Positions 34,933 to 37,808 of a stretch of DNA of 64,000 bases are shown in pieces (the first letter of the stretch is position 1; the number at the start of each line of letters is the position of its first letter). The stretch is from an uncultured Pseudomonadota bacterium. Lineage in GTDB: Bacteria; Pseudomonadota; Alphaproteobacteria; Rs-D84. The translations under genes were made by a program, and so were the position numbers. The notes beneath the pieces were generated by a model that saw only the letters and a program-made list of their open reading frames with translations, ran no database searches and was not told where the DNA came from. Where the stretch lies: the NCBI GenBank assembly GCA_900321105.1, contig OOHL01000003.1, positions 17,516-81,515 on the forward strand, given 5' to 3'.

Positions 34933-35841
34933 ATGCGAAAAATATGTTTAACCACGCTGTGTTTGGGGTTGATGCCAACATTTTCTGTGTGGGCAGTTGA
35001 TTTGAATACAGCGATTTTAAATGCAAGAACCGCATGTTCTGGTATTTCGGATTCTATGAATGATATGAAAGTAAAAGCCGGTATAAATACTGCGGTGACT
35101 GCCGTTGGAACTGTTTCTGGTGGTGTTGCACTTGGAACTGGTATTGCAAAGGTAAATGTCGACAAAGAAATAGATTTATTGTTGGCTTTGGATAAATCCC
35201 CCGCTTCACAAGAACGTGATTCTAATGAAATACAATTAACAGATGCGGATTATACCGAATTATTAACATTGAATCCAAATGCTGACAAAATATCCGAATT
35301 GGAACAAAAATCGAAAACATTGGGTAATATCAGAACTGGAACTTTGGCTGCGTCAACGGCAACAAACATTGTTGGAACTGCGTTGGCGGCTACCAATAAA
35401 GTAAGTGAAGATTTGGAATTAAATATAAATAAATGTATATCTGCGACCAAAGAATTATCAAATGCTAAATTGGCGGCAAAAATGGAAGGAACTGCGACTG
35501 ATTCAGAAATGATAATTGCAGACAGAATAATAAATGCATGTCGTGACTATGAATATGTTGATTTAAAACCGATTAATAAACGTGCAACTGGTGCGGCAGT
35601 ATCGTCTGGTATTGGCCTTGGAACTGGGGTTGTTGGAACAATAACCAGCGCGGTGGCGAATACAGAAGCTACACGCGCAGGTGATGCCAAGAAAGAAAAA
35701 GATTTAAATACAACAGCAAATGTGATGGCGGGCGCATCAACAGGCGCATCTGCTGTCGCGACAATATTTAATGCAACACAAATAGCGGCGATAAAGAAAG
35801 TAGTTATGGTAGCCGATGTCTGCGAGGGGGCGCTGGAATAA
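34933..35841 (+). CDS. Secreted Ala/Gly/Thr-rich hypothetical protein (302 aa)
   Basis: Signal peptide MRKICLTTLCLGLMPTFSVWA. Low-complexity A/G/T-rich segments. Its stop overlaps the next ATG (TAATG), suggesting translational coupling. Confidence 0.55.
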   Translation: MRKICLTTLCLGLMPTFSVWAVDLNTAILNARTACSGISDSMNDMKVKAGINTAVTAVGTVSGGVALGTGIAKVNVDKEIDLLLALDKSPASQERDSNEIQLTDADYTELLTLNPNADKISELEQKSKTLGNIRTGTLAASTATNIVGTALAATNKVSEDLELNINKCISATKELSNAKLAAKMEGTATDSEMIIADRIINACRDYEYVDLKPINKRATGAAVSSGIGLGTGVVGTITSAVANTEATRAGDAKKEKDLNTTANVMAGASTGASAVATIFNATQIAAIKKVVMVADVCEGALE

Positions 35842-37808
35842 TGAAAAAATATAGCATATTTGCATTGTGTGGATGTATGGCGATAAATGGTGTTTTTGCC
35901 GATGCCTTGAATTCGCAATTAAATCCAAAGGCTGTTCGCAAGGTGGTTTCATCGTTTGCAACGGCGGTGGCGTCTGGCGCGGATGCAAAAAATACAGTTG
36001 GTTATGAATCTATAAAAAAATGTTTGCTGAAATATGTATCAAAGGATGGGAAGTTTGACACAAATATCACAGTTAAACAATTCGGTTCTTGTTGTATGCA
36101 GGGTTTTCAAGGTCCAGAAATGTGTAAAAAAATGATAGAAGATGTCGTTTTTGAACACAACATGCTGGCTGGAAAAATGCGCCCGGTTCCGACATTGTGT
36201 ACACCAGAAGATTTGAATAATATGAAATTGGCCAATGCTGGTCATTATATTTATGTAAATGGTGTAAAAAAATGTGCAGCAACATCATGTATGCATGGGG
36301 CATATTTAGCGCGTTCCATACAAAAAAATCGTTATGGTCAATCAGATGGTTATTGCTTAAAAGGTGATGATCCATGGATTATCGGCCAAGATGGAAAGTT
36401 TGTGTTAAAATCTGATGTTAAAGAAACAGAAACTCCTGATGACAAACAATCACAAGAGCAACAATCACAAGAACAACAATCACAAGAACAACAATCACAA
36501 GAACAACAATCACAAGAACAACAATCACAAGAACAACAATCACAAGAACAACAATCACAAGAACAAGATGCTGAAGTTGTTGGTGATATTTTTGCGCCAA
36601 ATCCAATTATGTTGATATCTTTCTATAATCAATATTGTGTTGATGGTACTGGTAATTTAATATGTACAAAGAAAGGCAATGTGATAAGTTCTGCTTTGAA
36701 ATGTACAACTAAACCGGCTGTTGATACAACTAAAATTATGATAGATGCGAATGCTGTATGTAATGGAACATTTGTTGCATCTGGTAATAATGTTGCCACA
36801 TCTAATGAAAATGCGGCGGCTGTGGATGCAAATGCTGCGACAGCACAAGATGCGCAACAACAACCTGTTATTCAACCTGAACAGGAACAATTGGCGACTT
36901 TGAATTCTGGAAATACTGGTTTTCAGGTTGCGACCGTAAGTGCAGACGGCATAATTCCTGCTGCAGTAAATACTCCTGAAATGACCCGCGAAGAAGCTTT
37001 AAGGGCTGCTAATGAAAGTATTGCTGATAATGCCGAAAGTCAAATAGCTGAAGCGAAAACACGTTCTGAAAAAACCCAAGCGAAATTGGATGCTTTAAAA
37101 GCACAGCAAAGCCTGACTCAAGATTATATTGATGCAGAAAGCGATTATGACATCAGTGACGTTAATGCTGCGATAGAACACGCACAAAATGTCAAAGACG
37201 CTCAAAAAGATATGGCAAAGTTGCAACGCAAAGAAGAACGCCTTAACAGTAAATTGGAACGCCAAAAGAAACAAGAGGACGATTGTGCTGCGAAACACGG
37301 AACATTAAAAGCAGGTTCTTGTTGGTGTGACGATTTGATTTTGACTGGTAATATGGATTGTGCAGAAATCAAGGCAAAACAACAGGCGCGTCAAGATAAA
37401 CGTGATGCAAAGAAAGAAACCAAAGCATTAGAAAAAGAAAAATCTGATTTGGAAAAACAGATAAAGAATTATGAATCCCAAATCAAGAAATTACAAGATG
37501 CTGCAAAGGCTGATTCTGATAAGTTAAAAGCAAAACGTTCTGAATTGTCGGAATTAGATACATCTATTGATACCTTGACTCAAGAAGCCAAAAGATTGCG
37601 TGACAAGCAAGATAGTTTGGCTGTGAATAAATTGCAAGAATTGCAGAAACAGCAAGATAAACGTCCAGGGCTTGCACAACAGGTTGCAGATCTTGAATCA
37701 AAAATTGCTGACAGTGACACAGAATCTAAGGTAAAAGATTTATTAGACAAGATTCAACAAAATAAAAGTCGAATCGCAGAGATAGATTCTGAATTATCCG
37801 AAAAATAA
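35841..37808 (+). CDS. Secreted protein with an (SQEQQ)n tandem repeat and a long C-terminal coiled coil (655 aa)
   Basis: Signal peptide MKKYSIFALCGCMAINGVFA and a Cys-containing N-domain. Has 7.5 perfect SQEQQ repeats. The C-terminal ~250 aa show a heptad-like K/E/Q/L pattern. Confidence 0.65.
   Translation: MKKYSIFALCGCMAINGVFADALNSQLNPKAVRKVVSSFATAVASGADAKNTVGYESIKKCLLKYVSKDGKFDTNITVKQFGSCCMQGFQGPEMCKKMIEDVVFEHNMLAGKMRPVPTLCTPEDLNNMKLANAGHYIYVNGVKKCAATSCMHGAYLARSIQKNRYGQSDGYCLKGDDPWIIGQDGKFVLKSDVKETETPDDKQSQEQQSQEQQSQEQQSQEQQSQEQQSQEQQSQEQQSQEQDAEVVGDIFAPNPIMLISFYNQYCVDGTGNLICTKKGNVISSALKCTTKPAVDTTKIMIDANAVCNGTFVASGNNVATSNENAAAVDANAATAQDAQQQPVIQPEQEQLATLNSGNTGFQVATVSADGIIPAAVNTPEMTREEALRAANESIADNAESQIAEAKTRSEKTQAKLDALKAQQSLTQDYIDAESDYDISDVNAAIEHAQNVKDAQKDMAKLQRKEERLNSKLERQKKQEDDCAAKHGTLKAGSCWCDDLILTGNMDCAEIKAKQQARQDKRDAKKETKALEKEKSDLEKQIKNYESQIKKLQDAAKADSDKLKAKRSELSELDTSIDTLTQEAKRLRDKQDSLAVNKLQELQKQQDKRPGLAQQVADLESKIADSDTESKVKDLLDKIQQNKSRIAEIDSELSEK
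36450..36566 (+). repeat. Perfect in-frame 15-bp tandem repeat (tcacaagaacaacaa) of about 7.7 units, encoding SQEQQ
   Basis: Direct reading of the sequence; the units are identical except for the first, which has agc for aac. Confidence 0.9.

Follow-up and report, generated by a model that had tools for sequence, protein, structure and literature searches.

A putatively coupled pair of genes for exported proteins with a length-variable SQEQQ repeat in an Rs-D84 alphaproteobacterium

What a tightly linked pair of genes for exported proteins could do for a bacterium suspected of living off other cells is the question raised by ORF1 and ORF2, two open reading frames (ORFs) in a 64-kb stretch of contig OOHL01000003.1 (the whole of which is referred to here as the window) from an uncultured alphaproteobacterium of the order Rs-D84. 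Candidatus Enterousia is placed in the same order. Candidatus Enterousia and Rs-D84 bacteria, for which an obligate symbiotic or parasitic lifestyle has been proposed and which are suspected to live off other cells, occur widely in the guts of humans, livestock and termites; their genomes are smaller than 1 Mb, are devoid of most biosynthetic pathways and encode many hypothetical membrane proteins (PMC12306168). The window has a GC content of 34-40% and encodes PFOR, CarD, SSB, DUF1015 and an autotransporter, and its closest genome loci belong to metagenome-assembled genomes (MAGs) of uncultured proteobacteria, with SSB 94% and PFOR 92% identical. The ORF1/ORF2 gene family is not mentioned in the literature found on Enterousia and Rs-D84, and no paralogue of either ORF occurs elsewhere in the window.

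The gene pair and its cassette family

The pair and the elements associated with its expression are arranged as follows:

34835-34932, + strand: 5' region of the operon, with a putative promoter and a Shine-Dalgarno (SD) sequence, from direct reading of the sequence
34933-35841, + strand: ORF1, 302 amino acids (aa), predicted exported, all-helical protein and family-defining component
35824-35843, + strand: coupling junction, with the SD sequence GAGGGGG (35824-35830) and TAATG (35839-35843)
35841-37808, + strand: ORF2, 655 aa, the modular, fast-evolving, predicted exported partner
37807-37833, + strand: strong intrinsic terminator of the operon directly after ORF2, with a T run downstream of a 12-bp stem that has six GC pairs

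Ahead of the ORF1 ATG lie a candidate -35 element (TTGACT, 34835-34840) and a purine-rich SD sequence (AAGGAAAGAGGGGG, 34917-34930); no plus-strand promoter upstream of ORF1 scored above the threshold in a consensus scan, and the promoter is therefore only putative. In TAATG, the stop codon of ORF1 (TAA, 35839-35841) and the start codon of ORF2 (ATG, 35841-35843) have one base in common. The SD sequence GAGGGGG is located 10 nucleotides (nt) 5' of this overlap, within the ORF1 codons for the E-G of the conserved C-terminus CEGAL, and no terminator-like site was found between the two ORFs.

Signal peptides were assessed by direct reading and a hydropathy heuristic. Both N-termini resemble Sec signal peptides, that of ORF1 (aa 1-21) consisting of MRK, a hydrophobic core and FSVWA, with the mature protein predicted to begin at VD, and that of ORF2 (aa 1-20) of MKK, a hydrophobic core and NGVFA, followed by DA. 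In an alignment of 45 ORF1 family sequences, from which the conservation values below are also derived, the signal sequences end in AxA-like sites. Within its signal peptide ORF2 has a lipobox-like LCGC, with LGGC or LCGC in two orthologues, which may be a candidate alternative processing site.

At least 1,452 ORF1 homologues were identified at E<=1e-3, labelled 'Alphaproteobacteria bacterium' and none with a protein name; the family forms 443 clusters at 50% identity among 1.84 billion representative proteins, and neither Pfam nor NCBIfam holds a family for its members. ORF2, when searched at full length, has only four homologues (P0001-P0004, at 98%, 51%, 45% and 33% identity), whereas its N-terminal 200 aa alone gave no match. 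A scan of GTDB species genomes yielded 93 loci, 80 of which were retrieved. The genomes are about 0.9 Mb in size and carry one to three copies of ORF1, several of them two or three, and these copy numbers are lower bounds because the scan needs exact peptide patterns. The family is confined to MAGs that bear the label Candidatus Enterousia or Alphaproteobacteria and were obtained from the guts of humans, ruminants, horses and other hosts. The one exception among the 80 loci (L046, on the 8.9-kb contig CAZJGX010000033.1) carries a label from outside the Proteobacteria, 'uncultured Muribaculaceae bacterium', which is most likely a binning error.

A plus-strand ORF follows the ORF1 homologue in 79 of the 80 loci, and in 75 of these 79 the distance between the stop of the first gene and the start of the second is -4 to +2 nt. 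The partner proteins range from about 200 to 835 aa with 4-28 Cys residues, 76 of 77 have a signal-peptide-like N-terminus by the same heuristic, and 65 of the 77 are joined in one mosaic cluster by BLAST single linkage. Closely related partners have in common an N-terminal helical Cys module of ~100 aa, which often begins with [DN]T.I.W[NS]...A right after the signal peptide, and differ beyond it by module swaps, insertions and duplications. In the partner of locus L076 (position ~6922 of that locus), the N-terminal ~100-aa module itself is duplicated in tandem relative to the close relatives L053 and L086.

The first-pass annotation had proposed, from the letters of the DNA, that the two genes are translationally coupled and that both products carry signal peptides. 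Both proposals stand: coupling is favoured by the overlap, the internal SD sequence, the lack of an internal terminator and the tight junction in the related loci, and export by the two N-termini, the similar N-termini of the partners and the invariant Cys residues of ORF1. ORF1-ORF2 thus appears to be a bicistronic, translationally coupled operon, as predicted from its anatomy and the conservation of the junction, and one copy of an undescribed, multi-copy, Rs-D84-specific two-gene cassette family, of which ORF1 is the defining component. On the sequence evidence, the two protein families seem to be new, being absent from Pfam and NCBIfam and without detectable relatives among characterised proteins. 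In its general kind the locus is familiar, a variable exported or surface protein operon with a slippage-prone repeat.

The rate of divergence sets the pair apart from its neighbours. Identities to the window in individual related loci are:

L008: SSB 94%, hydrolase 76%, ORF1 69%, ORF2 41%
L009: PFOR 92%, SSB 94%, ORF1 71%, ORF2 53%
L075: PFOR 88%, SSB 85%, DUF1015 93%, hydrolase 72%, ORF1 45%, ORF2 unrecognisable

Compared across the syntenic loci, ORF1 is 45-71% and ORF2 0-53% identical, against 85-94% for PFOR, SSB and DUF1015 on the flanks; ORF1 and, most of all, ORF2 either evolve far faster than their neighbours or have been replaced through recombination.

A conserved N-terminal module, C-terminal modules swapped between close relatives and tight coupling to a conserved helper-like gene are also features of LXG-Lap-type and other polymorphic toxin systems, whose helpers are small and helical, and the cassette could be read as one, with ORF2 combining a delivery module with a variable toxic C-terminal payload and ORF1 acting as a helper or translocator. 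We regard this as highly improbable. Such a system differs from the cassette in having an immunity gene and a toxin domain: no small immunity-like gene follows the pair, the next gene being a lipoprotein-like hydrolase here and a convergent pyruvate kinase in locus L088, and the hydrolase gene, which related species carry in synteny at 72-76% identity, is therefore not a variable immunity-type gene. No toxin domain was detected in Pfam, NCBIfam or PADLOC, the payload in the window is made up of Cys-knot modules and a coiled coil, and export of both proteins is predicted to depend on Sec.

ORF1 and its resemblance to pore-forming proteins

The conserved component of the cassette can be divided into the following segments:

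35074-35154, + strand: G1 helix (aa 48-74, AGINTAVTAVGTVSGGVALGTGIAK), the best-conserved segment of the family, top-residue frequency 0.89
35155-35304, + strand: variable insert (aa 75-124), probable tip of the first helical hairpin
35305-35397, + strand: G2 helix (aa 125-155, KSKTLGNIRTGTLAASTATNIVGTALAATN), from alignment conservation
35398-35565, + strand: helical hairpin with C168 and C203, the best-modelled part, with a predicted local distance difference test (pLDDT) score >90
35566-35802, + strand: G3-loop-G4 hairpin (aa 212-290), with the glycine-zipper S224xxxG228xxxG232xxxT236

Four Cys residues (C35, C168, C203 and C297) are invariant. The four Gly/Ala/Thr-rich helices (aa 48-74, 125-155, 212-243 and 258-290) are the best conserved regions, with mean top-residue frequencies of 0.79-0.89 against 0.40 in the insert (aa 75-124), and glycine-zipper motifs are present in 43 of the 45 members. 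AlphaFold2, run with the 45-sequence alignment, predicts an all-helical protein (mean pLDDT 76, predicted template modelling score 0.55) of eight helices (24-35, 38-88, 104-112, 117-153, 159-185, 190-208, 212-242 and 252-301). Four relatives of 582-708 aa (P0197, P0233, P0251 and P0262) carry an extra 300-400 coiled-coil-like residues exactly at the variable insert, which is therefore seen as a projecting hairpin of very variable length; its tip would probably project from a conserved base.

The Gly-rich helices are conserved on every helix face, which suggests their burial in an oligomer or a protein with two states. Their summed apparent insertion energies are estimated at +4.2 to +5.8 kcal/mol, compared with +1.7 for the signal peptide, which sets them apart from classical transmembrane helices inserted by Sec. 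A multi-pass inner-membrane topology, which would put the four Cys residues in the periplasm, was considered unlikely at energies of +4 to +6 kcal/mol. An internal duplication of the first hairpin in the second was likewise rejected, as hhalign gave a probability of 4% with a Gly-rich match of 14 residues only.

When ORF1 and ORF2 were compared with Pfam, NCBIfam, PADLOC and PHROGs, the only matches were to coiled-coil families (Filament, SMC, tape-measure), all below threshold and regarded as noise, and a profile of the 45 ORF1 homologues, compared with all PDB chain sequences, gave five irrelevant coiled-coil matches (E 0.5-5). In the Pfam scan of the 45 members (E<=10), DUF7937 matched 17 below threshold, at aa ~225-295 and thus in the G3-G4 hairpin only, with scores of 14-20 bits against a cut-off of 31 and a best E of 3.6e-4. 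The matches were treated as compositional, although a very remote relationship is also conceivable.

The Foldseek list for the ORF1 model against PDB is headed by AhlB, SmhB, ClyA, MakA, XaxB and PaxB, which raises the possibility of a binary system of alpha-pore-forming toxins (alpha-PFTs). In such a system, ORF1 would be a Sec-exported, disulfide-locked, alpha-helical protein that forms pores in the manner of ClyA and AhlB, its conserved, weakly hydrophobic, Gly/Ala/Thr-rich hairpin (aa 218-290) would insert in the target membrane, and ORF2 would be a variable targeting or receptor-binding component, so that a bacterium without biosynthetic pathways could draw nutrients out of the cells of a host or partner. 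Like ORF1, ClyA-family alpha-PFTs are elongated, all-helical proteins of about 300 aa; they have a conserved, semi-hydrophobic hairpin of Ala/Gly-rich helices, and their genes share multi-gene operons with those of partner components. The membrane-spanning head of AhlB comprises two conserved Ala/Gly-rich segments of ~25 residues (G176-A201 and V212-L234) with a short loop between them (PMC6602965), and the G3-loop-G4 hairpin of ORF1, with two Ala/Gly-rich, semi-hydrophobic helices of ~25-30 residues and a polar loop of 14 residues, resembles it. The long modelled hairpins (helices of up to 51 residues), the conservation on all helix faces, which fits an oligomeric or two-state protein, the glycine-zipper motifs and the metabolic dependence of the host lineage also agree with a pore former.

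Nevertheless, this explanation is considered unlikely and is retained only as an alternative. None of the ClyA-family fold matches is significant (E 0.15-1.1, template modelling score 0.26-0.36, root mean square deviation 11-36 A; no match at E<=0.001), and long helical bundles match one another generically. No sequence or profile match to a solved ClyA-family member was obtained even at E<=10, nor any Pfam match, and the ORF1 model has no beta-tongue. ORF1 further differs from the ClyA family in its cleavable Sec signal, its two invariant Cys pairs and the variable insert of its first hairpin, and its partner is Cys-rich and coiled-coil and not a second ClyA-like subunit. A pore former would also require a route over the producer's own outer membrane, and none is apparent.

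Glycine zippers occur in various membrane-active or outer-membrane-associated proteins, such as the N-terminus of VacA, the Caulobacter proteins CdzC and CdzD and the 'glycine zipper 2TM' lipoproteins of the Rick_17kDa/SlyB type. These share with ORF1 motifs of the (G/A/S)xxxGxxxG type on weakly hydrophobic, highly conserved helices, but ORF1 is much larger, has four such helices bundled together, has predicted disulfides and is not a lipoprotein. No match to the glycine-zipper families PF05433, PF13488, PF13441 and PF13436 was found for ORF1, nor do they appear in the list of the 25 families most often matched by the 45 members at E<=10. It is a rather improbable extension of these resemblances that the ORF1 family might be an unrecognised class of Sec-exported, disulfide-locked, alpha-helical membrane-inserting proteins, which together with the partner would form an attachment-and-access device tapping a host or partner for nutrients, in the manner of an alpha-PFT-like translocon with exchangeable targeting subunits.

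ORF2 modules and the SQEQQ array

The partner encoded in the window is composed of distinct parts:

35901-36176, + strand: N-terminal helical Cys module (aa 21-112), present in diverged form in most partners; helices of low pLDDT
36177-36410, + strand: 4-Cys beta-hairpin module (aa 113-190), C..EDL..AG.Y..G..KCAAT.C..G.YL..G.S.G.C; strands, pLDDT 64-80
aa ~194-252: disordered Q/E-rich spacer containing the repeat, pLDDT 30-40
36445-36566, + strand: 15-bp tandem array encoding (SQEQQ)n, 8.1 units with 99% matches and no indels by Tandem Repeats Finder
36597-36776, + strand: small middle domain with four Cys (aa 253-312), pLDDT 59-73
aa 313-380: disordered linker
36981-37283, + strand: helical/coiled-coil segment 1 (aa ~381-481), with weak compositional Filament, SMC and tape-measure matches
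37284-37361, + strand: 4-Cys knot (aa 482-507, DCAAKHGTLKAGSCWCDDLILTGNMDC; C482, C494, C496 and C507), conserved in P0002 and P0003
37362-37805, + strand: coiled-coil segment 2 (aa 508-655), a 99-residue helix (507-605) followed by helices 609-623 and 626-654, pLDDT up to 90

The N-terminal module (aa 21-112) is predicted to be the part that docks onto ORF1. The 4-Cys beta-hairpin module recurs in 21 copies at differing positions in 12 partner proteins. The AlphaFold2 model of ORF2 was built from five sequences only and is of low confidence (pLDDT 54); its secondary structure agrees with the composition and heptad analysis, and Foldseek returned generic coiled coils only (E>=1.1). No PF03797 beta-barrel of the autotransporter type was matched at the C-terminus of either protein.

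The first-pass annotation had described a Cys-containing globular N-domain, perfect SQEQQ repeats with no sequence drift and a 250-aa coiled coil, and had taken the repeats to imply recent expansion or ongoing slippage. The Cys residues and the order of the parts were borne out, with the correction that the 16 Cys residues after the signal peptide are distributed over several recognisable modules. The extent of the coiled coil is real, as indicated by heptad-like scores and the modelled helices at 383-485 and 507-654, but not its continuity, which is broken by the 4-Cys knot and by Pro-Gly at 608-609. The 15-bp array, which translates as eight QSQEQ units (aa 203-242) and cannot be due to chance, is free of indels and departs from perfection at a single point, a synonymous GAG for GAA in the first unit.

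Variation in the number of units was observed when the window was compared with independent short-read metagenome assemblies of the same species. Upstream of the array, the strain contigs match the window at 100% identity for about 7.5 kb, and downstream of it at >=99.1%; with the array set aside, identity is 100% across the operon and >=99% in the flanks. They carry the following alleles:

Window and L002: 7.6 units, ORF2 of 655 aa
L007 (k127 contig): 4.6 units, ORF2 of 640 aa
L003 (k141 contig): 2.6 units, ORF2 of 630 aa
L001: 5.3 units, an N-gap and 4.3 units, hence >=9.6 units; ORF2 interrupted by the scaffold gap
L004, L005 and L006: contig ends within the array, ORF2 truncated

The alleles of 2.6 and 4.6 units are shorter than the k of the assembler (141 and 127, respectively), so that array-spanning reads must exist and collapse during assembly is an unlikely source of the short alleles; those of 7.6 and >=9.6 units are less certain. 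The presence of these four lengths in otherwise ~100% identical contigs supports slippage that is still ongoing. The 15-bp unit lies inside ORF2 and every allele is in frame (products of 630, 640 and 655 aa), and slippage would therefore change the length of the spacer and not switch the expression of ORF2 on or off. Of the properties of a contingency locus, copy-number polymorphism is thus found here and on/off switching of expression is not.

Tandem peptide repeats were also considered as a general feature of the family and rejected, since ORF2 is the only one of the 77 partners to have one. Its orthologues have a non-repetitive Q/E-rich linker at the matching position and the other 76 partners lack a repeat, and the array therefore arose recently, in this lineage, by expansion of a spacer that was already present.

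Variable surface proteins that combine repeats with a coiled-coil stalk are well known in other bacteria, the streptococcal M and alpha-C-type proteins and the Mycoplasma Vlp and Vsa proteins among them. ORF2 shares with these a signal peptide, an in-frame tandem repeat with strain-variable copy number, a long coiled coil and fast evolution. It differs from them in its Gram-negative (diderm) host, in the lack of LPXTG, lipid anchor or homology, in its obligatory pairing with a conserved helical gene and in the restriction of the repeat to a single member of its family.

Proposed role at the cell envelope

Taken together, these observations are interpreted, tentatively and with less than even confidence, in terms of an exported, disulfide-bonded envelope contact complex whose two components are produced by coupled translation and which diversifies by module exchange and slippage; we infer its localisation, the interaction between ORF1 and ORF2 and its function. 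Both proteins would be exported by Sec and then disulfide-bonded. The product of the first gene would form a helical bundle of ~280 aa, its four Gly/Ala/Thr-rich helices serving as an oligomerisation or membrane-association core from which the variable hairpin projects, and the product of the second would dock onto it through the N-terminal helical Cys module, followed by a lineage-variable payload. In the window, this payload would comprise the Cys-rich beta-hairpin module, the disordered (SQEQQ)n spacer, the small Cys domain and an interrupted coiled-coil stalk of ~270 aa. Translational coupling would lead to the synthesis of the two components in a fixed ratio. The complex, anchored in the envelope and projecting outward, may mediate contact with, or recognition of, host or partner cells, and would diversify by module swapping and, in the lineage of the window, also by in-frame slippage of the 15-bp array, which would alter the length or antigenicity of the spacer and never switch expression off. 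A surface or host-interaction role, which the first-pass annotation had suggested from the architecture of ORF2, is a plausible proposal, and fits the fast evolution of the pair and the presumed partner-dependent lifestyle of the host.

Several points weigh against the contact complex. Neither an outer-membrane translocator nor an anchor motif nor any known adhesin domain was detected, and a cassette inspected over 21 kb (L088) has housekeeping surroundings and no secretion system nearby. The Gly-rich helices of ORF1 are not classical transmembrane helices, the interaction between the two proteins is itself inferred, and the ORF2 model is of low confidence. The repeat alleles are derived from short-read assemblies, several of which are broken or gapped inside the array.

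An alternative is a structural pair of the periplasm or envelope that has no function outside the cell, in which ORF1 would be a membrane-associated scaffold and ORF2 a periplasm-spanning coiled-coil spacer or tether whose SQEQQ linker tolerates changes in length. Such a pair would agree with the presence of Sec signals only, the absence of outer-membrane export machinery nearby, the location of the cassette amid housekeeping genes and the disulfides, which suit the periplasm, and coiled-coil rods are common envelope spacers. This role is nonetheless judged rather improbable in view of the divergence of ORF1 and ORF2, far faster than that of their housekeeping neighbours, the mosaic, hypervariable partners of 200-835 aa, the several paralogous cassettes per genome of <1 Mb and the ORF1 inserts of 300-400 aa of coiled coil, which are by estimate longer than a periplasm.

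The region downstream of the pair in the window contains the following features:

37873-38604: next gene downstream, 243-aa protein with a lipoprotein-like signal (LYAC) and a borderline alpha/beta-hydrolase match (FSH1, 21.7 bits, cut-off 21)
38764-39309, - strand: 175-181-aa ORF with no family match, kept in all strain contigs, located after the hydrolase gene and before the tRNA-Gln repeats
39388-39958: 29-nt element in four copies; its final TGGTTGGGGCAGCTG corresponds to the 3' end of tRNA-Gln(CTG), encoded on the minus strand (39885-39958)
39402-39544 and 39728-39870: 143-nt direct repeat, 98% identical
40075-43557: 1160-aa autotransporter with a PF03797 beta-domain (aa 907-1140) and a passenger without Pfam match

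The tRNA-Gln repeat region (39388-39958) is rearranged between otherwise identical strain contigs, and its repeats look like stacked att-site remnants of integrative elements. Autotransporters homologous to that of the window (37-46% identity) are encoded, as in the window itself, within 6 kb of the cassette in six other genomes (L038, L044, L053, L056, L058 and L063), a nearness that could reflect clustering of envelope genes or chance.

The cassette, being lineage-specific, multi-copy in small genomes, predicted to be exported, disulfide-rich and fast-evolving, is a prime candidate for the interface of Rs-D84 bacteria with other cells, and offers targets for localisation and for screens aimed at binding partners, with the SQEQQ array as a marker for typing strains. 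Should ORF1 prove to be membrane-active, a Sec-dependent, disulfide-stapled branch would be added to the helical pore-formers.

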